Under the pieces are notes generated by a model, which saw nothing but the letters and a program-made list of their open reading frames with translations, searched no databases and had not been told where the DNA came from. From Prochloron sp. SulCav_FS08_3_32_3330 (lineage in GTDB: Bacteria; Cyanobacteriota; Cyanobacteriia; Cyanobacteriales; DYNF01): a stretch of 54,865 nt of DNA. The DNA is taken from contig DYNF01000010.1 of assembly GCA_020721205.1 (NCBI GenBank), forward strand, positions 1 through 54,865, read 5' to 3'. This document shows, piece after piece, positions 1 to 30,549 of the stretch (positions within the stretch are counted from its first letter, which is position 1; the number at the start of each line of letters is the position of its first letter). Made by a program: the position numbers and the translations under genes.

Positions 1-20
1 TAATTTTTTTCTAAAAATAC

Positions 21-283
21 CGATCGCTTTTTGGAGAATGAAAACGCCCTGCTTTATAAGCAGAGCGTTTTCATTCTCGGGAGGCAAGGGGTTTCAACCC
101 CTTGCTACATAAACAAAACCTGCCTACGCAGGTTGAATTTTTTAATATTAGTTAATATTTAATCTCGAAACCCGGGTCGCCCGTGGTTTTGTTTGGGTAG
201 CAACGGGTTTTAACCCGTTGAAAAAAAAGAATGAAAACACCCTGCTTTATAAGCAGGGCGTTTTCATTCTCCAAAAAGCGATC
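21..283. mobile_element. MITE-like element bounded by ~55-bp terminal inverted repeats, each itself a hairpin, with an AT-rich interior carrying terminator-type hairpin modules
   Basis: Left end 21-77 (cgatcgctttttggagaatgaaaacgccctgctttataagcag...) is the reverse complement of the right end 225-283 (...ctgctttataagcagggcgttttcattctccaaaaagcgatc). Internal modules recur at 6915-7470 and 30575-30736. The window starts at 1, so the left flank may be truncated. Confidence 0.45.
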
Positions 284-400
284 ATTATAACCTTTTTGTA
301 ATCAATTTTTTTAGCTTGTTTTTGATATTAATTAATCAAAAATCATTAAATCTTAAAAAGTTGCCCACCTTACTTGTAAAAATCAAAAGTCGGGGATTTA

Positions 401-1171
401 TTAAATAATTAATTGTAAATCTTCATTAAAAAATTTACGATAAACTCCCGTAGTAATTAAAGAAGTCATAATTAAATTTGTTACTACAATCATAAATAAT
501 ATTAAAATTTGATAAGAAGCGGCTTCTAAAGGTTTAATACCTGCTAAAATTTGTCCTGTAAAAATACCCGGAAGACTAACTAAACCCATAACCATCATAT
601 TATTTAAAGTGGGGATTAAACTAACTCTAATTGCCTGTTTTCGATAATTTTTAATTGCCTGTAAAGGAGTAGCTCCTAAACTTAAATATGTTTCAATTTC
701 TAAACGATTATTTTTAATATTACTAGCTAATCTTTCCCCTGCTAAAGAAGCACTATTCATCGTATTTCCTAACACTAATCCTGTTAAAGAAATTAAATAT
801 TGAGGCTCATACCAAGTTTTAGGTTGAATAATTAAAATTAAAGTATAACTTAAAGTGAATAAAATACTGACAAAAATTGAGCCAAAAATAATCGGAAATA
901 ATCCTTTAATTTCTTTACTAATATTATTTTTTATTACCTGAGTAGCGATAGTTAACATCATAATTAAAATGATAACTACGGGTAAAGGTTGATTTATTTC
1001 AAAAATAAACTCTAAAATATATCCTATCATTAATAATTGTAAAATAGCTCTACCACTAGCAATAATTAATTGACTTTCTAATTCTAATTTTTGCCAAAAA
1101 GATAGGGTAAGAGAAACTCCTAACATTCCTAATAATAAAACTAAATCAATAATATCTAATTTTTCAATCAT
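401..1171 (-). CDS. ABC-type permease of the UPF0014/FetB (YbbM) iron-export family; polytopic membrane protein
   Basis: 256 aa with about 7 hydrophobic helices. Length and topology fit the FetB-like permease family. No cognate ATPase gene is adjacent; the upstream side is occupied by the tnpB element. Confidence 0.5.
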   Translation of the reverse strand: MIEKLDIIDLVLLLGMLGVSLTLSFWQKLELESQLIIASGRAILQLLMIGYILEFIFEINQPLPVVIILIMMLTIATQVIKNNISKEIKGLFPIIFGSIFVSILFTLSYTLILIIQPKTWYEPQYLISLTGLVLGNTMNSASLAGERLASNIKNNRLEIETYLSLGATPLQAIKNYRKQAIRVSLIPTLNNMMVMGLVSLPGIFTGQILAGIKPLEAASYQILILFMIVVTNLIMTSLITTGVYRKFFNEDLQLII

Positions 1172-1260
1172 AAAAAAAATTTAAAATGCAAAGTTAATCT
1201 GATTTGACTTCCTCACCGCCCTCCGTTTCACTCGCATGGCGGTGATTCCTACTAAAATAG
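1172..1260 (-). ncRNA. Candidate TnpB guide RNA (omegaRNA/reRNA) scaffold at the 3' end of tnpB / right end of the IS
   Basis: Minus strand just downstream of the tnpB stop carries a stem-loop caccgccatgcgagtgaaacggagggcggtg (7-bp GC stem). In IS200/IS605 elements the omegaRNA spans the tnpB 3' end and right end. This is inference only. Confidence 0.25.
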
Positions 1261-2472
1261 TGTTAATTGCTCAAATCTATTTTCTCGGTGGGTTGACGCT
1301 TCACGGGATGTTGCTACTTTAGAAGTAGTCTTACACGCTCCTCCACGTCCGTTTAATGTCTCCGAATGCCCTCCGGCGACTAAAATATTCACACTGGCAT
1401 TAACATCTCTATCGTGATTTGTACCGCAATTTAAACAAGTCCACTCCCTAATATTCAACTCTTTTTTACCACCTTTAAAGCCACAAACAGAGCAAGTTTG
1501 AGATGTGGGTGTCCATCTATCAATTACTCGAAAATCCCTCCCGTACATTAAGGATTTAGCTTCTAACATAGTTCGAAAACTACGCCAACCTAAATCACTA
1601 ATCGCACGGGATAATTTTCGATTTTTCATCATTCCTGAAACATTCAAATCCTCTAAAACAATTACTTGATTTTCGTTAATTATTTTAGTTGACAATTTAT
1701 GTAAAAAATCGCTTCTAGTATCAGAAATCTTAGCGTGAAGTTTAGCTAATTTCTTTCTAGCTACTTCCCTTCTATTACTACCTTTTTCTTTTCTTGATAG
1801 ATTTCTTTGTAACTTTCTTAAACGCTTTAATTGACGTTTTAAAGGTTTAGGAGATTTAACTTTTTCCCCATTACTTAAAGTAGCAAAATCCGTTATTCCT
1901 AAATCAATACCTACTGAGTTATTATTCTCAGGTAATTGTTCAGGAGTAAACTCCACTACAAAGCTAACAAAGTATCTATCAGCAGAATCTTTAATGATAG
2001 TAACACTAGAAGGAATAGCGGGTAATTCTCGACTCCAGATTACTTTTATATCGCCTATTTTAGCTAAGTAAATGTAATCAGAATTAGGACATATTTTAAA
2101 GCCATTATCTGTAAATCTAGCTGATTGTTTTGACTTTCTTTTTTTAAATTTAGGTGGTTTAACTTTCTTTCCTTTTCTCTTACCTTTACAGGAGTTAAAA
2201 AAGTTAGAATAACCTTGTTCTAAATCTCTTAAACTTTGTTGTAAAGGAATAGCAGAAACTTCTGTTAACCAGATAGTTTCCTCCTCTTTCTTGAGTAAAG
2301 TTAATCTTTTAGAAAGTTCAGTATTTTTAGGCTTTTTCTTATTTTCTTCATACTCTTTTTTACAATGAGCTAAAGTATCGTTCCAAACAAACCTACAACA
2401 ACCAAACAATTGAGACAAATGTCTTTTTTGTTGGTTAGTTGGGTAAGCTCTGTAACGATAGCGTAGTTTCAT
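1252..2472 (-). CDS. tnpB: IS200/IS605-family OrfB transposase / RNA-guided endonuclease TnpB (IS1341-like, no TnpA present)
   Basis: 406 aa with N-terminal MKLRYRYRAYPT...HLSQLFGCCRFVWN typical of OrfB_IS605. RuvC-I is IDLGITDF, RuvC-II is VIVLEDLNV, zinc finger is CSVCG...CLNCG and RuvC-III is HDRDVNASVNI. All catalytic residues are present. Confidence 0.85.
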   Translation of the reverse strand: MKLRYRYRAYPTNQQKRHLSQLFGCCRFVWNDTLAHCKKEYEENKKKPKNTELSKRLTLLKKEEETIWLTEVSAIPLQQSLRDLEQGYSNFFNSCKGKRKGKKVKPPKFKKRKSKQSARFTDNGFKICPNSDYIYLAKIGDIKVIWSRELPAIPSSVTIIKDSADRYFVSFVVEFTPEQLPENNNSVGIDLGITDFATLSNGEKVKSPKPLKRQLKRLRKLQRNLSRKEKGSNRREVARKKLAKLHAKISDTRSDFLHKLSTKIINENQVIVLEDLNVSGMMKNRKLSRAISDLGWRSFRTMLEAKSLMYGRDFRVIDRWTPTSQTCSVCGFKGGKKELNIREWTCLNCGTNHDRDVNASVNILVAGGHSETLNGRGGACKTTSKVATSREASTHRENRFEQLTLF

Positions 2473-2523
2473 TTGATTTAATTTGATTTTAGTGTTATAT
2501 TCTAATTATAGACTTTTATTTAG

Positions 2524-2679
2524 ATTATATCAAGATCAAAAAAGATTCAATTTAATGTTAATGAACGGGAGTATCTTATACTCAAAAAATATGCTGAGTA
2601 TCTCAATATCTCAATGGCAGAAGTGTTAAGGGATTATATTAAGTCACTAGAAAGCCGTCCTAGAAGGACGGGGTTTTAA
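2524..2679 (+). pseudogene. Remnant of a ribbon-helix-helix (CopG/ParD-like) antitoxin-type gene lacking a start codon, probably truncated by the IS insertion
   Basis: Open frame ...NVNEREYLILKKYAEYLNISMAEVLRDYIKSLESRPRRTGF stop has an RHH-like pattern (beta-strand then helix). There is no ATG/GTG/TTG before the internal Met at 2614. It abuts the IS left end. Confidence 0.3.
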
Positions 2680-2780
2680 ACCCATTCTTTCTGATATAAT
2701 TATCTCATAGCATTAATAAAAAGACAAGATGAAATATAAGATAAAAAAGTGATAACGGATACATTAAATAATATTTTACT

Positions 2781-5537
2781 ATGAAAATCAAACCTAATTT
2801 ATTAAATTTTATTCCTAAACTTCCTTTAAGAATTGTTTTTACTGTTCCTTTTGTATTACAAATTATTGTAATAGTGGGTTTAGTAGGTTATTTTTCCTTT
2901 AAAAATGGACAAAAAGCTGTTAATAATTTAGCGAATCAATTAATATTACAAACAGCAAAATCAATTGAAAATGAAGTTACCTGTTTTCTACAAAAACCTC
3001 CCGAAATTACCCAAAATCATCAAAATTTAATTAATAACAATATTTTAAATCTTAATAATTTAGATCAATGGATATTTTATTTAGTTGATGAGGCTAAACT
3101 TTATCAATCTAGTTATATTAATTCTATTAAAATTGCTAATAATCAAGATGAATTTCTTGGGGCAGGTTTTACTTATATTAATAACGAAAAAAGATCAGGA
3201 ATCTCTATTTCCGGGGCAAAAACTAATTATCAATGGCAAGGTTATGAGAATATTAAAAGAGGACAACCTTTACAAAAACCTAGTATAATTAACCCTAATT
3301 TTTATGCGACTAAACGCCTTTGGTATCAAGAGGCTATTCAGCAAAAAAAAGCCAGATGGATTGATATTTCCACCGCCAAAAGTGATAAAACTCAGTTAAC
3401 TTTAAATTTTAGTCAACCTCTTTATAATCAAAATCGAAGTCAAATTTTAGGAGTTTCATCTGTGCAAATTAATTTAGTTAATCTTAATTATTTATTAGCT
3501 AGATTAAATATTCACAAAAAATTAGGACAAATTTTGATTATTGAAAAAGATAGTAATTTAGTCGCAACTTCTACTTTAGAAAACCCTTTTAATCCTCTGG
3601 ATCAAAAAAATCCTAGATTATCAGCTTTAAATAGTAATAATTCCTTAAGTAGGGATATTGCTAATTATTTAAAATCCTATAATCAAGATTTTTCTTCTTT
3701 TAATAATAAACCGACTATTAAGTTAAAATTTAATCAAGAAAACTATTTTTTAACTATATTTAAAGTAGAAGATCCTTATGGTTTAGAATGGTATATTGTA
3801 ATTACTGTGCCTGAATCCCATTTTATGGAGGAAATTAATGATAATACTCAAAAAACTGTTCTCTTTTCAATTTTAGCTTTAATTATTGCGATTATTCTTG
3901 GCATTTTTACCAGTAATTGGATCACAAAACCTATTTTAATACTTACTCAATCTGCTCAATTTTTTGCTCAAGGAAAATGGCAAGAAAGAGTTAATTTAAA
4001 AAGAAAAGATGAACTAGGTCAACTCGCAAATTCTTTTAATTTTATGGCTCAAGAATTACAAGGTTATGTGGAAAATTTGGAACATAAAGTACAAGAAAGA
4101 ACCGCAGAATTGGCGATCGCAAAGGAAAAAGCAGAAGTAGCAAATCAAGCAAAAAGTTTTTTTATTGCGAATATGAGTCATGAGTTAAGAACTCCTTTAA
4201 ATGCGATTTTAGGATTTTCTCAAATTATGATCAAATCAAAATTATTATCTCAAGAATATCAAGAAAATCTAAATATTATTTATCAAAGTGGAGATTATTT
4301 ATTAACTTTAATTAATAATATTTTAGACTTTTCTAAAATTGAAGCTGAAAAAATGGTTTTAAATTGCCAAGATTTTGATCTTTATTGTTTATTAAATGAA
4401 GTGAAAAATTTATTAAGTTTAAAAGCAGAAACTAAGGGTTTAAATTTAATTTTTGATATAGATCAGAATGTGCCTCAATATATTTCTACTGATCAAACAA
4501 AATTGCGTCAAGTGTTAATTAATTTAATTAATAATGGGATTAAATTTACCGAAAATGGCAGTATTTCTGTCACCGTTAATCGTCAATTAAATGATAAATT
4601 AAATGGAGATAATTTAGCTCTCAAAATAACAGTAGAAGATACGGGAGCGGGTATTTCTAAGGAAGAATTAAAGCAATTATTTCAAGCATTTAGTCAAACT
4701 GAAACAGGAAAAAATAGTAATGAAGGAACAGGTTTAGGATTGGCGATTAGTCAAAAATTTATTAATTTAATGGGGGGCAATATTGAGGTTAAAAGTAAAG
4801 TAGGAAAAGGCTCTATTTTTAGTTTTCAAATTAAAGTTAGAAAAGCTAATCAACCTAATATAAATAATCAAAAAATAAAACTTAATGTTATTGCGTTAAA
4901 ACCCCATCAACCTGAATATAAAATATTAATTGCTGATGATCAAGAAATTAATCGGTTATTATTAATTAAATTATTACAACCTTTAGGATTTAAACTAAAA
5001 GAAGCGAAAAATGGTAAAGAAGTTATCAAAATCTGGGATGAATGGCAACCTCATTTAATCTGGTTAGATCTGCGAATGCCGATCATGAATGGTTATGAAG
5101 CTACTCAATATATTAAGGGTACAATGAAAGGTAATGCTACGGCAATTATTGCTTTAACTGCTAGTGTTTTAGAGGAAGAAAAACAGATCATTTTATCCGC
5201 AGGATGTGATGATTTTATCAGAAAACCTTTTCAAGAATCGGTAATTTTTGAAACTATGGCGAAACATTTAGGAGTAGAATATATTTATGAAGAAAATGCA
5301 CCCGATCAAGATATAATAAAATCAGAATATAAGCTTAATTGTGAAAGTTTAAAAGTTATGTCTCAAGACTGGATCTCAAAATTAAATCAAGCATCCATGA
5401 GTTTAGATGATGAAATAATTTTAAATTTAATTCAAGAAATTCCTCCCGAATATCATTTATTAGGGGAAGCTTTAACGGATTTAGTTAATGATTTTCGTTT
5501 TGATAAAATTAGAATTTTAACGGAGAATATAGAATAA
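2781..5537 (+). CDS. Hybrid sensor histidine kinase: N-terminal TM + dCache-like periplasmic sensor, second TM, HAMP, HisKA (H-box SHELRTPLN), HATPase_c, C-terminal receiver domain
   Basis: 918 aa. H-box [17 protein letters not shown] and N/G1/G2 boxes ([25 protein letters not shown]). C-terminal REC carries ILIADDQ...D and the conserved K. Confidence 0.85.
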
Positions 5538-5539
5538 TT

Positions 5540-6910
5540 ATGAATAAACAAGATCAAGAAATCAAATCGGCAAATATTTTAATTGTAGATGATCAAATTG
5601 CTAACTTAAAAGTGCTTAATCAAATGTTACAAAATAAAGGTTATAAAGTGAGAAAAGCGATTAATGGAGAAATTGCTTTAATTGCGATCAAACAAGAATT
5701 TCCTGATTTAATTTTATTGGATATTATGATGCCAGAAATGGATGGTTATGAATTATGTAGAAGGTTAAAAAATAGTCCAAAAACTCAGGAGATTCCTGTT
5801 ATTTTTATTAGTGCTTTAAATGAAGTTTTTGATAAAATTAAAGCTTTTGAAATCGGAGGAATTGACTATATAACTAAACCTTTTCAAGAAGGGGAAGTTT
5901 TAGCAAGAATTAATCATCAATTAATCATTAAACAGCAAAAAGAATTATTAGAAAAAAAACAGCAAAAATTACTATTAGAAATTAAACATAGAACAGAAAC
6001 TGAAGCTATATTATATCAGTCAAGGGCAATTATTTCTGGTATTTTAAATAGTTCTCTTGATGGGATTGCGGCTTTAGAGGCTGTAAGAGAGGCAAAAACA
6101 GGACTTATTCAAGATTTTCGTTGTTTAGTTGTTAATCCAATTTTAGCACAATTTTTTAATTTAGATGCTGATGATCTTAGTGGTAAAATAATTTTTAGAC
6201 GCTTTATCAACAAAATAAATCATGATTTATTTTCTTTATTTATTAATGTTATTGAAACAGGGGAAGCATTAAAACAAGAATTTAATTATTTTCAGGGGGA
6301 AAAATCCTTATGGTATGAGGTTTTTGCTGTTAAATTAGGTGATGGTTTTGCGATAACAGTTAGAGATATTACAAAACGGAAAAATTTGGAGTTAAAATTA
6401 GATATTCTTGCTAGTACAGACAGCTTAACAGGAGTCGCAAATCGTCGCACATTTGATCATATTTTAGATCAAGAATGGAAACGTAGTTATCGAGAAAAAT
6501 ATCCTTTATCTTTAATATTAGCTGATATTGATTATTTTAAATTATATAATGATTATTATGGACATCAAAAAGGAGATGATTGTTTAATAAAAGTTGCCCA
6601 AACTATTAGGAATAGTTTACAACGTCCTGCGGATTTAGTTGCCCGTTATGGGGGAGAAGAATTTGTAATTATTTTACCGAATACTGATTTAGAAGGAGGG
6701 TTAAATGTGGCTGAAAATATTAGAAATAATCTGGAACAAATGAAGTTAGATCATGTTAAATCAAAAGTGCATAATTATGTTACTTTAAGTTTAGGTATTG
6801 CTAGTATAATTCCCACTCAAGAATTATCAATTTATCATTTAATTAAAATAGTAGATCAAGCTTTATATAAAGCTAAACAAAATGGCAGAAATCAAGTTAG
6901 TTTTAATTAA
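5540..6910 (+). CDS. Response regulator with REC-PAS-GGDEF architecture (diguanylate cyclase)
   Basis: 456 aa with ILIVDDQ...LLDIMMPEMDG (receiver). GGDEF core is RYGGEEF and the I-site-like motif is RxxD. Its start lies 3 bp after the kinase stop, so it forms an operon with 2781-5537. Confidence 0.85.
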   Translation: MNKQDQEIKSANILIVDDQIANLKVLNQMLQNKGYKVRKAINGEIALIAIKQEFPDLILLDIMMPEMDGYELCRRLKNSPKTQEIPVIFISALNEVFDKIKAFEIGGIDYITKPFQEGEVLARINHQLIIKQQKELLEKKQQKLLLEIKHRTETEAILYQSRAIISGILNSSLDGIAALEAVREAKTGLIQDFRCLVVNPILAQFFNLDADDLSGKIIFRRFINKINHDLFSLFINVIETGEALKQEFNYFQGEKSLWYEVFAVKLGDGFAITVRDITKRKNLELKLDILASTDSLTGVANRRTFDHILDQEWKRSYREKYPLSLILADIDYFKLYNDYYGHQKGDDCLIKVAQTIRNSLQRPADLVARYGGEEFVIILPNTDLEGGLNVAENIRNNLEQMKLDHVKSKVHNYVTLSLGIASIIPTQELSIYHLIKIVDQALYKAKQNGRNQVSFN

Positions 6911-6914
6911 GAAA

Positions 6915-7470
6915 AAGCAACAGCAACAGGTTGAAACCTGTTGGGGAAAAAAGGAGGGCGTTTTCATTTTCCTGAATGCAACGGGTTGAAACCCGTTGCT
7001 ACATAAGCAAAACCTGCTTACGCAGGTTGAATTTTTTTAATATTAGTTAATATTTAATCTTAAAACTCGTAAAGACGGGTTTTGTTTGGGTAGCAACAGG
7101 TTTTAACCTGTTGAAAAAAAAGAATGAAAACGCCCTGACTTTAATCTTAAAACCCGTAAAGACGGGTTTTGTTTGGGTAGCAACGGGTTTTAACCCGTTG
7201 AAAAAAAAAGAATGAAAACGCCCTGACTTTAATCTTAAAACCCGTAAAGACGGGTTTTGTTTGGGTAGCAACAGGTTTTAACCCGTTGAAAAAAAAGAAT
7301 GAAAACGCCCTGACAGGTAAGATGCCTGTTTCACGGTTGAATTTTTTTAATATTAGTTAATATTTAATCTTAAAACCCGTAAAGACGGGTTTTGTTTGGG
7401 TAGCAACGGGTTTTAACCCGTTGAAAAAAAAGAATGAAAACGCCCCGGGAAAAAAAGGAGGCTTTTTTAT
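6915..7470. repeat. Tandem/shuffled array of hairpin repeat modules from the same family as the MITE at 21-283 and the element at 30575-30736
   Basis: Repeated units of about 88 bp: cttaaaacccgtaaagacgggttttgtttgggtagcaacgggttttaacccgttgaaaaaaaagaatgaaaacgccctgactttaat occurs 4 times. Two copies of the dual-hairpin + T-tract module ...tacataagcaaaacctgcttacgcaggttgaatttttttaatattagttaatatttaatc are also present. It lies between the convergent GGDEF and map genes. Confidence 0.8.
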
Positions 7471-7476
7471 TATTTA

Positions 7477-8352
7477 TTAAATTTGATTAGGATCTGTAAG
7501 AATTTCATAACCATTTTTGGTTACTAAAACCGTATGTTCAAACTGTGCTGATAAAGATTTATCCATTGTCACTACAGTCCAGCGATCTCGCAGAGTACGA
7601 GTGTGTTTTGACCCCATATTAATGATAGGTTCAATCGCTAAAGTCATCCCCGGTTTTAATTTTACATTCGGTATTTCTCTAGTACGATAATTAAAAACTG
7701 GAGGTTCTTCATGTAAATTTCTCCCCACACCATGACCTGTATAATTTTCCACAATTGTATATTTGTGAGGCTTAACGTAGTCCTCGATCGCCCCGGCAAT
7801 ATCCGTTAAAAAATTCCCGGGTTTTACCTGTTCAATCCCCTTATATAAAGCCTCCTCCGCTACTTTTACCAATCTCTGAGCTTTCTGAGTTATCAGACCC
7901 ACCCCCACAGTAATACAAGCGTCGCCATGAAAACCATTATAATAAGCCCCCGTATCCACTTTAACCAGATCACCTTGACGGATCACCTTTTTGCGATTAG
8001 GAATACCATGGACCACCTCATTATTAACAGAAATACAGATAGAAGAAGGGAAACCATGATAACCTTTAAAACTTGGTTTAGCATTCATTTCTAAGATGCG
8101 TTTTTCCACATATTGATCCACATCAGCAGTAGTCATTCCCGCTTCAATAAATTCAGAAACTTCCTTTAAAACTGTAGCCACAATTTTGCCAGAAACGCGC
8201 ATAATTTCGATTTCTGGAGGAGTTTTAAGAGAAATACCCTTTTTCGCACGAGGGGACGCATATTTTTCTTGTTTCTGATGTTTATGCTTATTATTTTCCT
8301 GTACTTTAACAGGAGTTTCTTCCCCGAATAAAAGTCTTTTTAATAATCTCAA
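7477..8352 (-). CDS. map: Methionine aminopeptidase type I with a basic N-terminal extension
   Basis: 291 aa. MetAP metal-ligand context is present (DxxD...H...E...E with [20 protein letters not shown]). Confidence 0.85.
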
Positions 8353-8433: not shown

Positions 8434-8886
8434 TTATTCCCCAGCAATTATTAAAGCCTCCTGTTTCAAATTATAACTAAGGTAAAAACCATTATTTTCT
8501 AAATCATCTAATAAAGGTTTAATTTGATCAATAATTCCTTTTTGTTTAGCTTGAATTAAAATTCCTATTGTACCAATAAAAGTAACCTTCATTTTTTTTG
8601 CTACTTTACGAGCTTGTTGATCATCTAAAATAACTTTAATCTTTGTCTCATAAGCAAGGGTGATCGCTTCCGCCTCACCATCATCAACTAACATTTTTAA
8701 AGATAAGGTTAATCCTTGATCAGAAATGGACTTAATTTTTAACCAAGATAAACTAATCCCAAACTCCTTAGCGACTTCAGGAGGAATAAAAATTGAATCA
8801 AATAGTTGAGGTAAAATATCTAATTGACCAATTCTTTCTAAACCTATTAAACAGGTACTATCTGCAATAATAATTTGATTATTCAT
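8434..8886 (-). CDS. DUF3368 (PIN-like) domain protein, toxin-like partner of a UPF0175 gene
   Basis: 150 aa with N-terminal IIADSTCLIGLERIGQLDIL typical of DUF3368. It overlaps the upstream UPF0175 gene by 4 bp (ATGA). Confidence 0.6.
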   Translation of the reverse strand: MNNQIIIADSTCLIGLERIGQLDILPQLFDSIFIPPEVAKEFGISLSWLKIKSISDQGLTLSLKMLVDDGEAEAITLAYETKIKVILDDQQARKVAKKMKVTFIGTIGILIQAKQKGIIDQIKPLLDDLENNGFYLSYNLKQEALIIAGE

Positions 8887-10038: not shown

Positions 10039-10064
10039 TTTATTTTTAGTAAACTAATTAATTT

Positions 10065-10123
10065 AGGTTTGTTGTTGGGCTTTAGCACCATCTAATTATA
10101 GTGCTAAAGCCCAACAACAAACC
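10065..10123. repeat. Palindromic repeat unit (GTTGTTG-GCTTTAGCAC family) forming a perfect ~23-bp stem hairpin
   Basis: ggtttgttgttgggctttagcac - catctaattata - gtgctaaagcccaacaacaaacc. Relatives lie at 14070-14112, 19749-19806, 31886-32138, 35868-36104, 51725-51760 (half) and 54639-54865. Confidence 0.75.
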
Positions 10124-10156
10124 TACATTTATTTAATTATGCTCAAAAGCAAATCC

Positions 10157-13100
10157 TCATAAAACTCTAAAAAAGTTTTCCGCCAATCCAGCGATATGAG
10201 TAGCCTGATCAAGCCCATTGATAACCCTTCTGGCATTATAAAAGTCTCGCATTGACCCATTAACATATTGACTCAGACGACGACTCGTAAAAGTACCATC
10301 ACGCATTCCTAAAACTAGGATTTTAGCAGAAATAGCATAATCAGTGGCTTTATCAGGATAATTCACCAGATCAATCCCTAAACGCTTAGACCAATCAGTA
10401 TAATTACGTCGTCCCGTAATTTGGACAAAACCTCGACCTTTATAGCGTGGTCCATCTCCAGCGTTAATATTGCCTAAATCCCGCCGTCCCTCGTACGCTT
10501 GACCCGTCGCAAATTCTACCATCCATTGCCCCAAACGAGACTCATGTTGAGCCGTTGCTAAAATATACGCAATTTGTCCCTTATCTACAATATTATATTT
10601 CTGTGTTTCTTGTAGAATTAAAGGAATAGATTGAGAGGCATAGCGTTTAATAGTAGCATTAGTAATAACTTTTATAAGATTATTAACAAGATTAAGATTA
10701 CTAAATTGGCGGAAAGGAAAATAAGTATTAATCGGTTTTTGAGCTAATAAAGACCAAGTTTGTTTCCCGACAATACCATCAGGGTTTAATTTATTATTTT
10801 TTTGAAAAGTTTTAACGGCGGTTTCAGTAGCTTTACCAAATAAACCATCTATTATCTTAATTAAATTATATTGTTTTAATAAAGTTTGTAAAGATTTCAC
10901 TTCATTAATTAACTCAGGAAAATCAATCCCATCTTGAAGTTTTAAAACAGGTTTAACGATTGCTTTTCCATCAATTAAACTTTCTAAAAATTGCCAAGTT
11001 TTCTCTCCAATCACCCCATCAGGAGTTAAATTTTGAGTTTGTTGAAAAGTTTTAACAGCCTTTTCTGTTTCCGCACCAAATAAACCATCTATTAAAGTAT
11101 TTTCAGGTAAAAAATGATAGGTTTTTAACATAGTTTGTAACTTTTTAACCACATCTTTTAATTCAGGAGTTTTAATCCCATCTCCTAATTTTAAAACAGG
11201 ATATTTATTAATCACAGGAGTTGTCACCACAGGAGATTTAATCGGAGTAGTAGGGGGAGTTAAAACAGGAGGATTTTGTTGCAAAAATTGCCATGTTTTT
11301 TGTCCCACAATACCATCAGCTACTAAATTTTTACTCTTTTGAAATTCTTTAACAGCACTGTCTGTACTTTTCCAAAATAGTCCATCTATAATCGTATTTT
11401 TTGGTAAAAATTGATGTTTTTGTAACAGAATTTGTAACTGTTTTACCGCCTCTTTTAAGTTAGGGGTATCAATCCCATCTTTAAATTTTAAAATAGGGTA
11501 TTTATTGACAGAATTATTAATAACAGGAGGAGGAGAAATAGGAGGTTGAATTTGAGGAATAGAGGGCGGATTTTTTTCTAATAATTCCCATGTTTTTTGT
11601 CCCACAATACCATCAACTACTAAATTTTTACTCTTTTGAAAAGCTTTAACACCTTCCTCTGTGGCTTTCCAAAATAATCCATCTATAACAGTATTTTGAT
11701 GTAAACTATTCCATTTTTTTAATAAAGTTTGTAATTTTTTTACATCCTCTTTCAGATTAGGAGTATCAATCCCATCTCTTAATTTTAAAACAGGATATTT
11801 TTTCGCAGAAATAGAAGGAGTATTAACCGGATTTTTTGCTAAAGTTTTCCCTGTTTTTTCGCCTAACTTTTCTAAAGCATTCCAAGTGATCTTAGCGACA
11901 ATTCCATCTACTAATAAATTTTGACTTTTTTGTAATGCTTTAACGGCGGTTTCTGTTTTATGCCAAAATAAACCATCAATTAAAGCATCTTGAGGTAAAA
12001 ATTTATATTGTTTAAGGAGAGTTTGTAAATATTTTACTTCTTCTTTTAAGGTTATATTATAAATACCATCTCCTAATTTTAAAGTGGAATGTTTTTTAGT
12101 TGAAGACACATTAAAACCGATCATTTTAGGCGGATTTTCTTGACTTAAATTTTCCAGATTAGGATTAATTTCCTCCTCTTTTATTTGAGGAGTAAATATT
12201 TTTTCAGAAGGTACACTTTCTAACTTAGTTTTAGGAGTAACATTTTCTTCACTTTCTAAAACTTCTAAATTTTGAGAAAAAGTAGATAAATTATTAGATA
12301 AATTATTAGAAGTTTGTAAGCCTTCTAAAGCCATCCAAGTATCTTGATTAACAATCCCATCCACAGTTAAATTATTTCTTTGTTGAAAAATTTTAACCGC
12401 CCCTTCTGTTTCACGCCAAAATAAACCATTAACTTCCAGATCAATCCCTAATATTCCCCATTCTTGTAACAAAGTTTGTAAATATTTTACTTCATCTTGT
12501 AACTCAGGAGTATCTATACCAGAACCTAACTTTAAAGTTAAATGATTTTTCCGATTAATCTCATTAATCTCATTAATTTCGATAGTTTGATTAGTTAAAA
12601 TAACCGGATTTTGACTAACATTTTCTTCCTTTAATAAACCTTGTTGAAAACCAAATTGATTTTGTTCATTTTCTGGATTAATTTCTGAGATTAATTCCTG
12701 ATCTTCTTTATTTTCTAAAGCCCTCCAAGTCTCAGGATTAACTATCCCATTATCAGGTAAATTTTTACTTTTTTGAAAAGCTTTAACTCCTTCTTCTGTT
12801 TCTTGCCAAAATAAACCATCAATAAAGGAATTTTCAGGAAAAAAGCCCTGATTTTGTAATAATGTTTGTAATTTTTTTACTTCTTCTTGTAATTCTGGTG
12901 TATTTAAACCATCTCCTTTTTTTAAATTAGGATAGGAAATATTTTTATAAGAATTAATTAGATTAAGATCAATATTTTTAATTTCTTCATTAGAGTTATA
13001 ATTAGAATTAGAATCAGGAAGATTAACTATTTCTAACTCGGTTATTTTTTCCTTAATTAAAATCGGCTCATTTTGGACTTCAATCGTTTCAATATTAGTT

Positions 13101-14029
13101 AAATTATCGGGAATAATTCTATTTTCTAAAACTTGCCAAATTTCTCGATTAACAATCCCTGTTTCCCCTAAATTACGACTTTTTTGTAATTCTTTAATCG
13201 CCGTTTCTGTTTCTGTCCAGAAAAAACCATCTAAGGAGAAATTTTGTGCCAAAAATCCTTGTTTTTGTAATAATTCTTGTAAATATTTTACTTCCCCTTG
13301 TAAATGAGGAGTATTAAGTCCATCTCCTATTTCTAAACTAGGATATTGACTTTCAAATTGATTAATATTTTGATTAATATTCATAGTTTCAGTCCCATTA
13401 ATAGATGAAGAAATAGAAAAATTTTGATTAGGAGAAATCTGATTAGTTTCAATTTTTTCCTCAATCATAGATTGAATAACTTGACTTTCTAAACTCTGCC
13501 AAGTTTGTTCATTTACGATCCCATTTTGTAATAAATTATGACTTTTTTGAAATTCTTTAACCGCTAAGTCGGTTTTTTGCCAAAATAAACCATCTGTTAA
13601 AGAATTTTTCTCTAAAAATTTCTGCTCTTTTAATAAAGTTTGTAAATATTTTACCTCATCTTGTAACTCAGGAGTATTAATCCCATCTCCTAATTTTAAA
13701 ATATGATGTTTACTCGACTTATTACTTGCCGAATAATCAATTAAATTAGCAAATTTTGGTTCATTTTTTACCGTAGAAATAAGATTAGAATAAGACTCTA
13801 AAAAAGTCCAAGTTTGTTCCCCCACAACTCCATCTGTTGTTAAATTTTTACTATTTTGAAAAGCGATCACCGCTCTTTCCGTTATCTTGCCAAATAAACC
13901 ATCAATGAGGGCATTTTCTGGTAAAAAACTTCCGGCTTTTAATAAAGTTTGAAGTTCTTGCACATCTTTTTTAAATTCTGGAGTTTCAAAGCCGCTACCA
14001 ATTCTTAAAATAGGTTTTTTATTAGTCAT
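10157..14029 (-). CDS. Giant cell-wall hydrolase-like protein: about 10 tandem peptidoglycan-binding (PG_binding_1-type) repeats followed by a C-terminal GH19 (chitinase/lysozyme-like) catalytic domain
   Basis: 1290 aa. Repeats follow L-K/R-x-G-D-G-I-x-T-P-E-L-x-x-x-V-K-x-L-Q-x-L-L...D-G-L-F-W-x-x-T-x-x-A-V-K-x-F-Q-K-S-x-N-L-x-x-D-G-I-V. C-terminal domain has AQHESRLG (GH19 H-E-S/T acid), a second Glu about 14 residues on and RYKGRGFVQITGRRNY matching GH19 GRGPIQL(T/S)WNYNY. No obvious signal peptide. Confidence 0.7.
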   Translation of the reverse strand: MTNKKPILRIGSGFETPEFKKDVQELQTLLKAGSFLPENALIDGLFGKITERAVIAFQNSKNLTTDGVVGEQTWTFLESYSNLISTVKNEPKFANLIDYSASNKSSKHHILKLGDGINTPELQDEVKYLQTLLKEQKFLEKNSLTDGLFWQKTDLAVKEFQKSHNLLQNGIVNEQTWQSLESQVIQSMIEEKIETNQISPNQNFSISSSINGTETMNINQNINQFESQYPSLEIGDGLNTPHLQGEVKYLQELLQKQGFLAQNFSLDGFFWTETETAIKELQKSRNLGETGIVNREIWQVLENRIIPDNLTNIETIEVQNEPILIKEKITELEIVNLPDSNSNYNSNEEIKNIDLNLINSYKNISYPNLKKGDGLNTPELQEEVKKLQTLLQNQGFFPENSFIDGLFWQETEEGVKAFQKSKNLPDNGIVNPETWRALENKEDQELISEINPENEQNQFGFQQGLLKEENVSQNPVILTNQTIEINEINEINRKNHLTLKLGSGIDTPELQDEVKYLQTLLQEWGILGIDLEVNGLFWRETEGAVKIFQQRNNLTVDGIVNQDTWMALEGLQTSNNLSNNLSTFSQNLEVLESEENVTPKTKLESVPSEKIFTPQIKEEEINPNLENLSQENPPKMIGFNVSSTKKHSTLKLGDGIYNITLKEEVKYLQTLLKQYKFLPQDALIDGLFWHKTETAVKALQKSQNLLVDGIVAKITWNALEKLGEKTGKTLAKNPVNTPSISAKKYPVLKLRDGIDTPNLKEDVKKLQTLLKKWNSLHQNTVIDGLFWKATEEGVKAFQKSKNLVVDGIVGQKTWELLEKNPPSIPQIQPPISPPPVINNSVNKYPILKFKDGIDTPNLKEAVKQLQILLQKHQFLPKNTIIDGLFWKSTDSAVKEFQKSKNLVADGIVGQKTWQFLQQNPPVLTPPTTPIKSPVVTTPVINKYPVLKLGDGIKTPELKDVVKKLQTMLKTYHFLPENTLIDGLFGAETEKAVKTFQQTQNLTPDGVIGEKTWQFLESLIDGKAIVKPVLKLQDGIDFPELINEVKSLQTLLKQYNLIKIIDGLFGKATETAVKTFQKNNKLNPDGIVGKQTWSLLAQKPINTYFPFRQFSNLNLVNNLIKVITNATIKRYASQSIPLILQETQKYNIVDKGQIAYILATAQHESRLGQWMVEFATGQAYEGRRDLGNINAGDGPRYKGRGFVQITGRRNYTDWSKRLGIDLVNYPDKATDYAISAKILVLGMRDGTFTSRRLSQYVNGSMRDFYNARRVINGLDQATHIAGLAENFFRVL

Positions 14030-19719: not shown

Positions 19720-19748
19720 TTCCTCAGAAGATAGTTTGAAAAAAAATA

Positions 19749-19806
19749 GGTTCGTTGTTGCGCTTTAGCGCCACAATTCTATAGTGCTAAAGCACAACAA
19801 CGAACA
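19749..19806. repeat. Palindromic repeat unit (GCTTTAGCGC variant) between convergent mvp and the NB-ARC gene
   Basis: aggttcgttgttgcgctttagcgcc-acaattctata-gtgctaaagcacaacaacgaac. It probably also acts as a bidirectional terminator. Confidence 0.7.
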
Positions 19807-23756: not shown

Positions 23757-26700
23757 ATGAGTACATCTACCATTCTCGATCCAATTCTTGAAAATCCGAT
23801 TGAAGATTTATCTGATCCCATTCTCGAAAATGTGATCTCATATACATCTGATCCCATTCTCGAAGAAGCTTTACAAGACGTATCAGCAACATTAGCAGAA
23901 TTTGTCTATAGTGAGGATTTTCTCCCAACGATTGAAACTGTTTTCGGTAATAATTACGATACTGCTACCTTAGAAAACATCCGTCAACAGTGGGCAAACG
24001 GTGATTTTTCTAACCTACCTCAGATTGAGATTCTTTCAGGTAGCCAGTTACAGGGTGCGAATGCGGCTTATGCTGGTAAGACGAATACTATTTATTTTTC
24101 TTCTGATTTCTTAAGTCAATATGGTGATAATTCCCAAGCGTTAAAGAGTGTTTTAATTGAGGAAATTGGGCATTATGTGGATTATCAAATTAATACAGTT
24201 GATACCGTTGGCGATGAAGGGGAATATTTCTCTAATTTAGTGCGAGGGATTAAGTTGAGTGAGAGTCAAGTTCAGAGTTTAAAACAAGAAGATGACTCCA
24301 ATGTTATCAGTGTAAATAATCAGGATATCATGGTTGAACAATTTCTTCCTACAGGAACTTATACAGATGGACTTGATGGAGGGCGTTATGTTTTTCAAGC
24401 TGAAACAGCAGACTATATAGAAAAGTTTTTTGGAATACAGATCAATAACTCTTATCAGTACGATTCTGGAGACTCTTTAATTCTAAGAACACAATATTCT
24501 GGCGATGAGAAAACTTTTTTTGAAGGTGGTGGATTAACCGCAGGAATTAGTTACAATGGAGGCTCTTTTGGTGCAGGGTTTAAAGCCTATGCAGGTATAA
24601 ATTTAGGTGAAATAGATTTTGATCTGCCTTTACAAGCTCTTTTAACTGCAAGTAATTCAGGTAAAACACTTAACTTTGATTTTACAACTATTTTTGATGC
24701 CAAACTGGACTATACAATTCCTTCTGCCTATGCAGTTTTAGATTCAATTTTTGAGTATAATATTGGCTCACTGGATATATTTGCCAGTGCTGCAGGTGAA
24801 TCTATAGAAAGGACTATTTTTAATGGTGTGTCTGATACTTGGACACACAGAATGGTTAATATCAATACCTTAAATGATCCGATCGTACAAATAAATTTAT
24901 TACCCGGTCAAGTTAATTTTTTATCTTCTTCATTGAGTATTAATTCAGTCTCTTTATTAGGAGGTTTAGCAACTTTTAAAGCAAGTATTCTTCCCAATTT
25001 TAATTTTAGTATGGAAAACTCATCTACAGAGGATCAGTTTTCTATCAAGATTAGTAATCAAAGACCTCCTGATCCTGAAGATATTACTCCGGGTGATCCT
25101 AATCCTGATCCGGCTCTTCCAGATGAGTTAGCTCGTATAACCTTAAATTTTGATAAACTTCTTGATCTAGGTTTAACTGCTTTTGCAGGATTTCCATATC
25201 TTTCTGAAGATGTAACTGTTGGACCTTTCAGTGCAGGATATCGGTTACTACCAATAGAATTAACTGGTATAGCAAGTGCAATTTATGAACTTGAAGTTGG
25301 TATCAGAAATACTGAACCCAAAATAATTGAAGGTGAATTTTTAGATATTGCTACCTCATACACTGAGCTTGATGAATTACTTGCCAAAGATACAGATAAT
25401 GATTCAAAAATAGATGTCACATTTGAACTAAATCCAGATATTTTCTTGAAACCAAACTTGGCATTAGACTGGCAAACAGAGTTTAATGTAGATATCGGAA
25501 GACTTACTGCAAAAGTAGATTTTAACAAACTTCCATTTCCGTTAAATTCTATTCCATTTCTAAACAATATTAGTGGAAGTGTTAATCTTATTGATTTACC
25601 TGAAATTGTTATTGATGGATTAAGTTTTCGCATTGATATTCTTGATAAGCTAGGTATTCCTAAATCTGATTTAAGTATCTCTTTTAACGATCTATATGCA
25701 ATGTTTAATAATGGTCAAAAACCTGACTTTAACAAAGTTTCTGTTGAGATACCTTTTAATGCAATTTATCCAAATATAGGAACAGCCCAAGATGATGTGA
25801 TGAGCTTACCTGAATATTTTGGAGCAGAAAACCTTTATGGTGAAGCTGGTAATGACATTCTTTACGGTAATTCTTCTGCTAATCGAATTATGGGAGCAGA
25901 AGATAATGATACTATCTATGGTCGAGCAGGGAATGATCAACTTTACGGAGAATGGGGGAATGATCTTCTTTTAGGTGAACAAGGTAGTGACTATATTAAT
26001 GGTGGTACTGGTATAGACACCGTAAGCTATAGTAATTCAGCAAATGGTGTTATTGTCAATATTAATCAATCTCTTAATTATGGCAATCAAAAACTAACTA
26101 CATTTGATCTTGAACCAAATTTCTTTATTGGTGCTGGTCAAGCTTTAGACGGTTTTGGCAATGTTGATAGTTTGGCTAACCTTGAAAATATCATTGGTTC
26201 TGCTTATAACGATATTTTAATCGGCAATGCCTTAAATAATATTATTGAAGCCGGATCTGGAAATGATATTTTAATCAGTAGTGCTGGTAGTGATCAATTA
26301 TTGGGAAATAGCGGTATTGATACAGCAAGTTTCCGCCGTGATCCTAATGGTGTTTATGTCAGTCTTCAAGATAACATTGCAATAGATGGTTTTGGTTATA
26401 TTGATAATCTTTCCAGTATCGAAAATGTTGTTGGTTCTAATTTTGATGATGAAATATGGGGTAATAATGGGATCAACGTCATTCTCGGTGGTGCTGGAAG
26501 TGATCTTGTTTATGCTTTAGATGGAGATGATCTAGTTTATGGAGAAAGTGAAAACGATACCATCTTAGGTGGTTCTGGGAATGACTACATTGAAGGTAAT
26601 GATCAAGATGATCGCCTGTTTGGTAATACCGGAAATGATGTCATCTCAGGAGGTAATGATCAAGATTATATCGAAGGTAACGAAGGTGATGATCGCCTCT

Positions 26701-29700
26701 TTGGTAACTCTGGTTATGATACCATCTTAGGTGGCTCTGGTAACGATTATATCGAAGGTAATGGTGAAGATGACAACCTTTACGGAGAATCAGGCTATGA
26801 TACCATTTTAGGTGGTTCTGGTAATGATTACATCGAAGGTAACAGCGAAGATGATCTAATCTATGGTGAATCAGGTTTTGATATCATCAAAGGTGGTACA
26901 GGCTATGACACTATTTATGGTGGTTCAGAAAATGATTATATCGAAGGGAATGAACAGGATGATCGTATTTTTGGTGAAACTGGAAATGATACCATCTTAG
27001 GTGGTAATGATAATGACTACATTGAAGGTAACGATCAAGATGATAAACTTTATGGTAATACCGGAAACGATATTATCTTAGGTGGCAATGATCAAGATTA
27101 CATTGAAGGTAACGAAGGTGATGATCGTCTTTACGGTAACTCTGGTTATGACACCATTTACGGTAACTCAGACAATGATTATATCGAAGGTAACGATCAG
27201 GATGACAAACTTTATGGTAATACCGGAAATGATGTGATCTTAGGTGGCAAAGATCAAGATTACATTGAAGGTAACGAAAATGATGATCGTCTCTTTGGTA
27301 ACAGTGGCAACGATCTCATCTATGGTAACGATGGCAACGATTATATCGAAGGAAATCAAGGTGATGACCTAATTTACGGTGATAATCCCTTTAATCCGGG
27401 TGTTGATACCCCACCAACCGACAATACCAACCATCAAGATACTATCTTTGGTAACGATGGTAATGACCAGATTCACGGTGGAGAAGATAAAGATATCATC
27501 TCAGGTGGTATTGGTAATGACCTCATCTATGGTGACTTCAAAGACGATCTCTTTGCAGGTACAGGAGATGTCATTGACGGTAACGAAGGAGATGACACTA
27601 TCTTTGGTGGTGGTGGCGAAGATACCATACATGGAAACGATGATAACGACACCATCCGAGGTGAAGGCGGGAATGATCTAATCTTTGGTGATGCCGGAGA
27701 TGACTATATTACCGGAGGTGATGGTGATGATACCATTTACGGTGGTACAGGCAATGACCTCATTTTTGGTGATAGCGGTGTTGGTAATGACCTCATTTAC
27801 GGTAATGAAGGTGATGATACTTTACATGGGCGTGTTGGTAACGATCGCATTTACGGCAATGAAGATAATGACTTAATTTTTGGTGAAGAAGGAGAAGACT
27901 ATATCGAAGGTAACACAGGTAATGATACTATTTCCGGTGGTGATGGTAACGATCACATCTTAGGAAATGAAGGTACAGACCTCATTCACGGTGATGCCGG
28001 AGATGATAATATTACTGGTAATGAAGAAAATGATACCATTTTTGGTGATACTGGTAATGACTACATTGAAGGTAACGATGGTAATGACCTAATCTCAGGC
28101 GGTGCTGATAATGATACCATTTCGGGTAATATCGGTGATGACTTCATTTATGGTGATAGCGGACAAGACACTATTCACGGTAACGAAGGCAATGACCTGA
28201 TCAGTGGTGGTACAGACAACGATATTATTTATGGTGATACCGGAAGCGATCGCATTCAAGGAGATGACGGCGATGATAATATCTATGGTGGTGCTGATAA
28301 TGATATTATTTCGGGTAACAACGGTGCTGATAATATCTATGGTGAAACCGGAAACGACCTAATACATGGAAACGATGGTGATGACTACCTCAGTGGTGGT
28401 GATGGTACTGATCTCATCTATGGTGACAATGGTAACGATAACATGGACGGTGATCTAGGGGAAGATCAACTCTTTGGTGGTGAAGGTAACGATACCATGC
28501 GTGGTGGTGATGATAACGACTCCCTCTATGGCGAAAATGGTGCTGATATTATGGAAGGTAATAACGGTAATGATAGCCTCGCTGGTGGAGCAGGTAACGA
28601 TATCATGAGTGGCGGTACCGGAGATGACTTTATCAATGGTCAAACTGGTAACGATATCATGTATGGTGATGATGGTAACGATACCATGTATGGAGAAGAA
28701 GGTGATGACAAGCTCTATGCAGGAAATGGAGATGATTACCTCGTAGGAGGTGCAGGTGGTGACTTATTAGATGGTGGTGCAGGTAAAGACTTAATTTCTT
28801 ACTACACATCCAAGGGCGGTGTTACTGTACAATTAAGCTCTGGTCATAATAAAGGTGGCGACGCTCAAGGTGATAATATTACAGGAGTAGAAAACCTTGA
28901 AGGTTCATATTATGATGACTGGCTCATTGGAGATAATGGCAAAAACACCATTATCGGACTTTCCGGTAACGATCGCCTTGATGGAAAAGCAGGTCATGAT
29001 ACCCTATTCGGAGGCTTAGGTAACGACTCTTTAGAAGGTCGTCAAGGAAATGATATCTTAATGGGTGATCAAGGTAATGATTATCTCGACGGTGGCTCAG
29101 GTAATGACTGGCTTTCCGGCGGTTTAGGAGATGATCAACTTTACGGAGGGCGATCGGGTGATGATATCCTTTCTGGTGGCGATGGTAACGACTACATAGA
29201 CGCTAGTTCAGGTGTAGACCTCATTTTCGGTGGTAATGGTAATGATACCATTGATGCAGGTTCTCATAACGATACCGTTTATGGTGGAGCAGGAAACGAT
29301 ATTATTGACGGTGGTACGGGTAGTGATATCCTTTTTGGTAACGAAGGCAATGACACTATTTATGGAGGAATGGATGATAACCTCTTATATGGTGGTCAAG
29401 GTGACGATTTACTCTATGGTGGCACAGGTAAAAGTGTTGATACCTTTGCGATCGCCCTAGCGGAAGGGATTGATACTCTCTTTAACTTCCAAGTGGGTAC
29501 GGATCGGATCGGATTAGTAGGTGATTTTACTGCTAATGATATTCTGATTAACTCAGGTCAAGGAAAGAATAAAGACGTTACCCTCACCTATAAATCTACG
29601 GGAAATACCCTCGCTATTTTGAAAGATGTGCAACTCAATAAAAATCAAACTCTGAATTTTATTGCCCTCAGTTTACCTACGATAGCAGTGGATCCTCTTG

Positions 29701-29943: not shown

Positions 29944-30549
29944 ATGGAAAATATTATTTTAAATCGTACTGCTTCCGTTAAACGTACTACTAAAGAAACC
30001 GATATTCAAGTTTCTCTTAATTTAGATGGTACGGGAAAATGTAATGTTAATACGGGTGTTCCTTTTCTGGATCACATGATTAATCAAATTTCTTCTCATG
30101 GTTTAATTGATTTAGATATTCAGGCAATCGGTGATATTCATATTGACGATCATCACACTAATGAAGATGTGGGTATTACCCTCGGTCAAGCTTTGGCTAA
30201 GGCGATCGGCGATCGCCAGGGAATTGTGAGGTTTGGTCATTTTATTGCTCCCTTAGATGAGGCTTTAATTCAAGTAGCTCTTGATTTTTCCGGTCGTCCT
30301 CATTTAAGTTATAATTTGGACATTCCAACGGAAAAAGTAGGTAAATATGATACTCAATTAGTTAAAGAATTTTTTGTAGCAATTGTTAATCATAGTCAAA
30401 TTACTTTACATATTAGACAATTAGACGGGATAAACTCTCATCATATTATAGAAGCAACTTTTAAGGCTTTTGCGCGCGCCTTACGCATGGCTTTAGAAAT
30501 TGATCCTCGTCGTGCCTCAGAAATTCCTAGTTCAAAAGGAGTATTATAA
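29944..30549 (+). CDS. hisB: Imidazoleglycerol-phosphate dehydratase
   Basis: 201 aa with [20 protein letters not shown] and [15 protein letters not shown] motifs of IGPD. Confidence 0.9.

Follow-up and report, generated by a model that had tools for sequence, protein, structure and literature searches.

The window analysed here, the whole 54,865-nt contig DYNF01000010.1 of Prochloron sp. SulCav_FS08_3_32_3330 (GenBank assembly GCA_020721205.1), opens with a short non-coding inverted-repeat element which recurs at two further loci and which, at a probability of roughly 0.6, we would assign to the repetitive extragenic palindromes (REPs). It would be an inverted doublet, locally expanded to clusters, of a cyanobacterial REP-like unit, multiplied by a Y1 transposase of the REP-associated tyrosine transposase (RAYT) type and only secondarily terminating transcription. 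The assignment to REPs and to their composites, the bacterial interspersed mosaic elements (BIMEs), is made because GTAG stands at the foot of a hairpin, because the stems divide into complementary sub-families, and because the units occur as inverted dimers 20–100 bp apart, in tandem clusters, nested within other palindromes and downstream of genes. REP-like repeats have already been reported in cyanobacteria, and the element would add one more member of that class.

One unit in two orientations

When the copies are aligned by anchoring on their conserved linker, each being read on its own strand, a single unit of ~64 nt is found to recur, in such a way that the modules B and C, which a preliminary description of this DNA had kept apart, become opposite orientations of one and the same thing: a C-type unit, when reverse-complemented, gives B, and every element has both orientations. 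The unit begins with H1, a hairpin rich in G+C (AACCNGN-loop-NCNGGTT), flanked by A/T runs and with a T-rich tail; this is followed by a near-invariant, T-rich linker, TTTTGTTT(G/A)(G/T) (also written TTTTGTTTG(G/T)), by GTAG, and, immediately after GTAG, by H2, a perfect stem of 9–10 bp with a loop of 2–4 nt (CAACGGGTT-tt-AACCCGTTG). In 17 of the 21 places where it occurs in the sequences examined, a third hairpin, H3, the former module A, borders H2 on the outside, behind A8 or TTTTTGGA, for which reason it is taken as the outer end of the arm; it is present either as the complete hairpin or as its first half only. The full element thus consists of two inverted units, with their GTAGs inside, around an A+T-rich centre of 30 nt. 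The left and right arms form consistent sub-types, distinguished by the sequence of H1, by ATGTAG vs GGGTAG, and by TC vs TT in the loop of H2, and since every element carries the unit both ways, it is only from these small differences that an orientation can be defined.

The 18-mer GGTTTTGTTTGGGTAGCA, with up to three mismatches, is present nine times in the window (0.08 expected), as is the half-motif of module A, GAATGAAAACGCCCT (0.09 expected), and a covariance model (R1) built from 53 units recovers exactly nine units, all of them within three intergenic loci. In all nine, GTAG directly precedes H2, where the published definition of a REP places GT[AG]G 0–2 nt 5′ of the hairpin foot (PMC6006769); its four columns are 92–98% conserved over 110 full-length model matches, and it stands at the expected place in ~42 of the 53 model matches that were retrieved without a GTAG-containing pattern. 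H2 itself, with its 9–10 bp, its loop of 2–4 nt and its complementary stem changes, is of the kind to be expected of a REP, for which a short, fully paired stem of ~6–20 bp, a loop of 2–5 nt and complementary sub-families are usual, and the copies are dispersed, extragenic and mostly downstream of genes (nine units in three intergenic loci over 55 kb, and 29 contigs elsewhere). The inverted dimers are accompanied by mosaic and tandem clusters, such as the additional arms behind copy 2 and the arrays of two related contigs (L056 and L060). The loop of the right-arm H1 is found among the copies in both orientations, CCCGT-AAAG-ACGGG vs CCCGT-CTTT-ACGGG (window 7066–7087 vs L064, L072 and L054), and it looks as if the tip of the hairpin had been inverted between copies.

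Copy 1, at the start of the window, was described from the outset as an inverted-repeat element with hairpin arms, and repeat finding bears this out, with inverted arms of 61 nt (17–77 and 228–288) that are 89% complementary, each of the two outer arms holding a 20-bp hairpin (GAGAATGAAAACGCCCTGC-7 nt-GCAGRGCGTTTTCATTCTC; 34–78 and 227–272). The sequence 17–288 folds at −87.7 kcal/mol, vs −30.2 ± 3.8 for its shuffles (z = −15). The 44-nt H3 hairpin is present twice in direct orientation, 193 nt apart (35–78 and 228–271), and the full element proper occupies 62–243. Read on the minus strand, the left arm has its H1 at 117–134 (AACCTGC-4-GCAGGTT), its GTAG (as CTAC) at 105–108 and its H2 at 84–105; on the plus strand, the right arm has H1 at 168–189, the linker TTTTGTTTGG, GTAG at 197–200, H2 at 201–220 and then A8 at 221–228, while the centre provides the T-runs behind both H1 hairpins. 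The right-hand H3 faces the minus-strand UPF0014 gene (401–1171).

Relatives of copy 1 are indeed present in the window where they had been described, at 6915–7470 and 30575–30740 (three had been announced, of which only these two loci were named). The first of these yields a second inverted pair (6955–7014 and 7165–7224; arms of 60 nt, 82% complementary), and is made up of a solo H2, one full element (copy 2), two extra right arms in tandem, and a variant element (Table 1). Copy 2 runs from the left terminus AGGGCGTTTTCATTTTC through the left arm unit (6973–7036, minus), the centre, the right arm unit (7056–7119, plus) and A8 to the right terminus GAATGAAAACGCCCTG, and both of the extra right arms also end in A8 and GAATGAAAACGCCCTG. 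In the variant, the hairpin that replaces the left arm is followed by a centre, a right arm unit (7366–7429), A8 and a degenerate H3 (7432–7470) that adjoins the M24 peptidase gene of the minus strand at its 3′ end; this same variant is also found in two related contigs, L058 and L065. Copy 3 consists of a left arm unit on the minus strand (30591–30654), with AATCTGC/GCAGATT as its H1, and a right arm unit on the plus strand (30674–30738), with AAAACCCTC-GCAG-GAGGGTTTT as its H1 and CATCGGGTT/AACCCGATG as its H2.

Table 1. Parts of the three loci of the element in the window
Feature	Position	Strand	Description	Basis
Copy 1, whole composite	17–288		Outer palindrome around an inverted doublet of REP-like units	Repeat finding, folding
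H3, left copy (former module A)	34–78		GAGAATGAAAACGCCCTGC / TTTATAA / GCAGAGCGTTTTCATTCTC	
Left arm unit, copy 1	79–142	−		Covariance-model match, 74.4 bits
Centre, copy 1	135–165		A+T-rich, roughly palindromic, GAATTTTTTAATATTAGTTAATATTTAATCTCG	
Right arm unit, copy 1	161–226	+		Covariance-model match, 65.0 bits
H3, right copy	227–272		On the minus strand, 20-bp stem then T8; strong terminator-like site	
Solo H2-type hairpin CAACAGGTTGAAACCTGTTG	6924–6943	−	Start of the array, 14 nt past the stop of the GGDEF gene	
Copy 2, complete element	6955–7137			Repeat finding, folding, covariance model
Two extra right arms in tandem	7138–7312	+	Period 87–88 nt; units 7143–7206 and 7231–7294	
Variant element	7313–7470	+	Other small hairpin, CAGGTAAGATGCCTG, in place of the left arm	
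Copy 3	30575–30740		Between hisB (stop 30549) and the ORF (open reading frame) at 30836	

Outside the window, a scan of a genome collection (596 Gb) with the 18-mer, at two degenerate positions, gave many chance matches, and the same architecture was found in at least ~20 cyanobacterial genomes among the matches listed (for example, aacccgcGCAGgcgggTTTTGTTTGTGTAGCAgcggttTCaaccgc), the carriers among them being Rivularia, Calothrix, Waterburya, Microcoleus, Nostoc and Oscillatoriales, often with the unit in inverted doublets. Metagenomes contributed 29 contigs with the unit between differing flanks: 11 of these hold full window-type elements of 137–145 nt in different genomic contexts, and others, from a second organism, hold arrays of up to 12 units. 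Doublets with GTAG inside are present at each of the three loci of the window, and 11 related contigs have them too. The arrays of the second organism, which is of higher G+C content (L060 11531–12845 and L056 5027–5207), have a period of ~237 nt with alternating orientation, or one of 58 nt in direct orientation, and are crossed by spurious ORFs. Doublets nested in other palindromes are seen in copy 1 of the window and in L074, where, at 2040–2330 (L077 having this sequence too), an unrelated 22-nt palindrome, GGAGTGTGAGCGTCTCGCTCAC / GTGAGCGAGACGCTCACACTCC, encloses the doublet with its two arms. No match to the unit was found in the plasmid collection and the viral contigs searched, and a literature search with the sequence strings returned nothing relevant.

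Compensatory change and the REP-like reading

The paired substitutions that first drew attention to the element, cctgc/gcagg vs tctgc/gcaga and caacggg/cccgttg vs catcggg/cccgatg, are to be seen in the sequence, together with the variable loops of H1. Over the 53 units, 11 of the 18 proposed pairs have changed on both sides (70 cells), which is reached by none of 500 shuffles, and controls in which the pairing was slid remain far lower; over 128 distinct units, in an alignment based on the model, the count is 15 of 18 pairs and 210 cells, again with none of 500 shuffles equalling it on any measure. In the latter alignment, H2 has changes on both sides in eight of its ten pairs. Among the forms that H2 takes are CAACGGG/CCCGTTG, CAACAGG/CCTGTTG, CAATAGG/CCTATTG, CCATAGG/CCTATGG, CCACGGG/CCCGTGG, CAAGGGG/CCCCTTG and CATCGGG/CCCGATG.

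The level at which this upkeep takes place can be read from the 11 full elements. Within their four local hairpins, seven pairs (13 cells) are doubly changed, a result that none of 500 shuffles attains; when the left arm is paired with the right arm, no pair with compensatory change is found, and all 500 shuffles are at least as good. Five of the 11 elements even carry, in their two arms, different H2 variants that are individually compensated. It is therefore each small hairpin that is kept, and not the long hairpin that the doublet could form. Read on the GTAG strand, the stems contain G.T pairs over A.C pairs at 15 to 1, small numbers which suggest that this is the strand that folds.

These changes had been taken as the signature of selection on secondary structure, in RNA terminators or small RNAs (sRNAs) or in hairpin DNA recombination sites. 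The compensatory upkeep of the hairpins stands, beyond shuffled and slid controls; what does not follow from it is selection on RNA, of which covariation in a DNA palindrome is, alone, no proof. Template-switch correction in quasi-palindromes can also restore pairing without selection. REP families, for their part, are known to comprise sub-families whose stems differ by complementary changes (PMC3733652), and among the options first put forward it is that of hairpin DNA recombination sites which is closest to the best explanation.

If the REP-like reading is accepted, a RAYT-type Y1 transposase of the HUH class, acting in trans, would recognize the units as folded single-stranded DNA, would cut at GTAG, and would copy or rearrange them, giving rise to doublets, to tandem arms and to insertions into other palindromes. 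The hairpins would persist since copies unable to fold would no longer propagate, and those copies that came to lie downstream of genes would have been tolerated and possibly retained, with H1 and H3 acting there as two-way terminators or as stabilizers of 3′ ends. There are precedents for such a system: the RAYT subclasses 2.4, 2.7 and 2.8 are accompanied by GT[AG]G-tagged REPs in cyanobacteria (PMC6006769), the E. coli RAYT binds single-stranded REP DNA and cuts at GTAG (cited in PMC3733652), and three GTAG families, GTAG-12, -15 and -16, were reported from Anabaena, Nostoc and Cyanothece by Di Nocera et al. (2013; PMC3733652), the GTAG-15 dimers of Anabaena being located inside other palindromes.

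Like these families, and like the REPs, BIMEs and REPtrons of E. coli, the element has its GTAG immediately 5′ of a hairpin that is short and perfect, the likeness to GTAG-12, -15 and -16 being judged from their published description. The cyanobacterial GTAG REPs are the nearest reported examples, with sub-families of complementary stems, tandem clusters, dimers within palindromes, convergent or co-directional sites, and inverted dimers 20–100 bp apart with GTAG inside (the “TT” type of PMC3733652). In contrast to them, the unit described here has an additional upstream hairpin, H1, and the near-invariant T-rich linker, and often a capping H3, both of these hairpins being terminator-like; and whereas REPs are usually species-specific, the linker is conserved here across cyanobacterial orders. 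The element also resembles the REP doublets forming hairpins (REPINs; Bertels and Rainey, 2011, PMC3116915), with two inverted REPs, a short spacer and a doublet that can be folded as one long hairpin, a likeness in which dependence on a RAYT is presumed.

Several points weigh against the REP-like reading. The base of the window-type H2, CAAC, has two G/C among its four positions, and so falls short of the rule of at least three among the first four stem bases used in REP searches (PMC6006769), though that rule serves to guide searches and is not demanded by the biochemistry. REPs typically flank a cognate RAYT gene in their genome, but neither the 55-kb window nor the ~0.5 Mb of related loci yielded a RAYT or Y1 gene, whether with a motif regular expression on six-frame translations, with tblastn from an approximate E. 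coli RAYT sequence, or with Pfam scans of 30 window ORFs; for a single-copy gene this absence from the window and the related loci is unsurprising, and we infer the link to a transposase from the form of the repeats. No filled site could be compared with an empty one, as contigs of the same strain carry the element or else break off there, and mobility is therefore inferred only from the differing genomic contexts. H1 and H3, with their T-tracts, are foreign to classical REPs, and the two arms do not change together as those of the Pseudomonas REPINs do; it is each arm's own hairpins that co-vary here. Finally, the alignment obtained with the covariance model leans to the structure of the model itself, and many of the sequences were retrieved by patterns that contain the linker.

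Position behind genes and rival explanations

The main alternative is that the element acts primarily at the RNA level, as a dispersed cassette of two-way terminators or 3′-end stabilizers, or as an sRNA, in which the structure of the transcript would be selected and mobility would be incidental. We regard this as rather improbable, though it is the strongest of the rivals, and part of the evidence for it comes from position. Copy 2 follows the plus-strand stop of the GGDEF gene by 68 nt, and copy 3 that of hisB by 47 nt; copy 1 has no sequence upstream of it and adjoins the UPF0014 gene of the minus strand at its 3′ end. In the related contigs, the 3′ end of a co-directional gene is faced by the left arm in nine cases and by the right arm in five, and where gene, element and gene all have a single direction, the proportion is 3 to 1, L074/L077 being the exception. 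The statement that module B always lies in plus orientation after a plus-strand stop is thus correct for the two testable copies of the window, a rule of n = 2, but the opposite arrangement is seen in L074/L077 and in L072.

The clusters that lie between ORFs number 12 in convergent, 17 in co-directional and three in divergent intervals, and REPs are likewise found mostly between convergent or co-directional genes (PMC3733652). As many as 86 of 97 units are outside ORFs; ten of the other 11 are in the spurious ORFs over the L060 array and one is in L047. The location of the element is almost always 3′ of genes.

The hairpins themselves also speak in part for a role in the transcript. The terminator search flags the left-arm H1 on both strands, where it is accompanied by T-rich tracts, and the right-arm H1 is terminator-like by eye only; on the strand that reads inwards, H3 with the T8 behind it forms a strong terminator-like site, which faces the minus-strand genes beside copies 1 and 2. 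In positions 1–8000 of the window, 16 terminator-like sites are found vs 3.7 ± 1.9 expected, nine of them in the elements. H1 and H3 resemble the bidirectional intrinsic terminators, in that their G+C-rich stems are bordered by an A-run and, across the stem, by a T-run, so that either strand reads as a hairpin with a U-tract. The excess of G.T pairs in the stems of the GTAG strand points in the same direction, and so does the condition of cyanobacteria, which are without Rho and among which, in Synechococcus elongatus, canonical terminators account for only ~30% of transcription units (PMC12642595). From sequence features, H1 and H3 are probably two-way intrinsic terminators or 3′-end stabilizers.

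However, H2, the best-conserved hairpin, has no T-tract and is not flagged as a terminator in the arms of the doublets, only the solo copy at 6924–6943 being so flagged, and GTAG and the linker are near-invariant across cyanobacterial orders although a terminator needs neither. For these reasons the RNA-level role is ranked as secondary: it is likely to be a further function of the hairpins and not the cause of their persistence. Unlike a bidirectional terminator, H1 and H3 are here part of a repeated, conserved unit with a non-terminator H2 and a GTAG tag, a difference that concerns a function predicted from sequence. Moreover, the arms lie on opposite strands, and a single transcript would read one of them as its antisense version. 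The idea of module B as a dual-hairpin terminator of fixed orientation is not supported, B being an inverted arm whose H2 is a GTAG-tagged palindrome without a T-tract, and of the hairpins it is H1 and H3 that are terminator-like.

No promoter was found inside the element, and Rfam 15 gave no match at the gathering threshold across the whole window, the elements having only sub-threshold matches to generic (miRNA-like) hairpins and weak ones to NsiR8. The latter, on the minus strand at 202–273, 7182–7255 and 7405–7424, score 16–22 bits vs a gathering threshold of 61 and lie over H2 and H3; the model of NsiR8, a cyanobacterial nitrogen-stress sRNA, may include a hairpin of the GTAG-unit repeat type. 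Directly behind copy 3, at 30750–30778, there is a near-consensus promoter of sigma-70 type (TTGACA-17-TACACT), 58 nt upstream of which no further than the ORF at 30836 begins; this copy thus separates a region that is terminator-like from the promoter that comes next.

[quoted passage not shown] Long terminal inverted repeats are certainly present (61 nt at 89% and 60 nt at 82%; termini AGGGCGTTTTCATTC...GAATGAAAACGCCCT) in an element that is small, non-coding and found in many contexts, and direct repeats of 11–14 nt flank copy 1 (GCTTTATAAGC) and the array of copy 2 (GGGAAAAAAGGAGG). Yet both flanking repeats are pieces of longer, partial tandem duplications that involve the ends of the element, no consistent target duplication of fixed length was seen where the borders were examined in 17 doublet elements, 11 of them of the window type, and solo and tandem arms are common, as are variable termini. 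If a transposase read the ends as double-stranded DNA, covariation of the local hairpins would be unexpected.

By description only, the element may be likened to the cyanobacterial MITEs (Nezha, MaeMITE and those of Anabaena), as short, non-coding, hairpin-forming inverted repeats in intergenic DNA, and, in the nesting of small repeats within other hairpins, to these and to the small dispersed repeats of Nostoc reportedly treated by Elhai and colleagues in 2008; it differs from the cyanobacterial MITEs in having neither a fixed target duplication nor matching IS ends in this sequence. In favour of the MITE reading, such elements are abundant in cyanobacteria (PMC3184786).

The only IS of the window is a TnpB-only element of the IS605 family (1180–2700; ORF 1252–2472 on the minus strand) with OrfB_IS605, Cas12f1-like TNB and helix-turn-helix (HTH) domains and with end hairpins of its own. 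Since these ends are unrelated to the repeats, a link between the two was rejected, and this, together with the lack of a fixed target duplication, is an argument against both an IS-derived MITE and an IS200/IS605 derivative. The latter, a palindrome-associated transposable element (PATE) moved via its end hairpins by an IS200-type TnpA and perhaps carrying a remnant of a TnpB guide RNA, is very improbable, for although there is a conserved tetranucleotide near the hairpin foot, a TnpB gene 1 kb away and a frequent presence of IS200/IS605 in cyanobacteria (PMC6006769), the ends of IS200/IS605 are not inverted repeats but have differing subterminal hairpins on one strand, whereas the arms here are inverted copies of one unit, and neither the window nor the related contigs yielded a TnpA gene.

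Other repeats of the window and the significance of the element

Other repetitive forms are present in the window. A second family of intergenic palindromic repeats, with the unit GGTT(C/T)GTTGTTG-NGC(T)TTAGCN-C and without the GTAG tag, occupies 10051–10133, 19734–19805, 31879–32136, 35852–36109, 51715–51762 and 54624–54860; its members are solo, in inverted pairs, or in tandem arrays of 30–33 nt or 90 nt, and they directly adjoin GTAG-type elements in L058, L064 and L080. A tandem array of the heptamer GATAGT(T/G), with ~19 copies at 40417–40551 and an inverted partner at 40692–40725, resembles the short tandemly repeated repetitive (STRR) sequences of cyanobacteria. Among the coding sequences, 23757–29822 is an ORF of 2021 aa made up of 27-nt repeats (a nonapeptide, GGxGxD-like), and 10157–14029 a minus-strand ORF of 1290 aa with repeats of ~297 nt. 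A stretch of 286 bp (8560–8845), inside a DUF3368 (PIN-like) gene at 8434–8886, is missing from a metagenome contig of this locus that is 99% identical (L078, at its position 1179); this is a deletion polymorphism in a probable toxin-antitoxin pair, the DUF3368 gene lying beside a UPF0175 gene.

The content of the window further includes PsaD, XisH/XisI, a sucrose-phosphate phosphatase and 20 highly iterated palindrome (HIP1) sites, at 33% G+C, and marks the DNA as cyanobacterial. HisB (29944–30549) and the sucrose-phosphate phosphatase (36131–36979) are each the sole member of their 90%-identity cluster among ~15 billion proteins, and the organism is thus without a close sequenced relative in that protein collection.

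Returning to the REP-like doublet, the maintenance of the local hairpins rather than of the hairpin of the doublet departs from the picture drawn from the Pseudomonas REPINs, and the unit joins a GTAG-tagged hairpin to terminator-like hairpins via a linker conserved over cyanobacterial orders. As a more speculative step, which we consider doubtful, the arrangement H1-linker-GTAG-H2(-H3) could be a “mobile terminator” of the whole phylum, in which a REP-type hairpin copied by a Y1 transposase would have become permanently fused to beneficial two-way terminators; were this so, the element would seed terminators downstream of genes in Rho-less cyanobacteria, in which canonical terminators are scarce. 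If the units truly terminate, they would be a source of dispersed terminators where most transcript ends are unexplained (PMC12642595), and would also offer useful natural two-way terminator parts.

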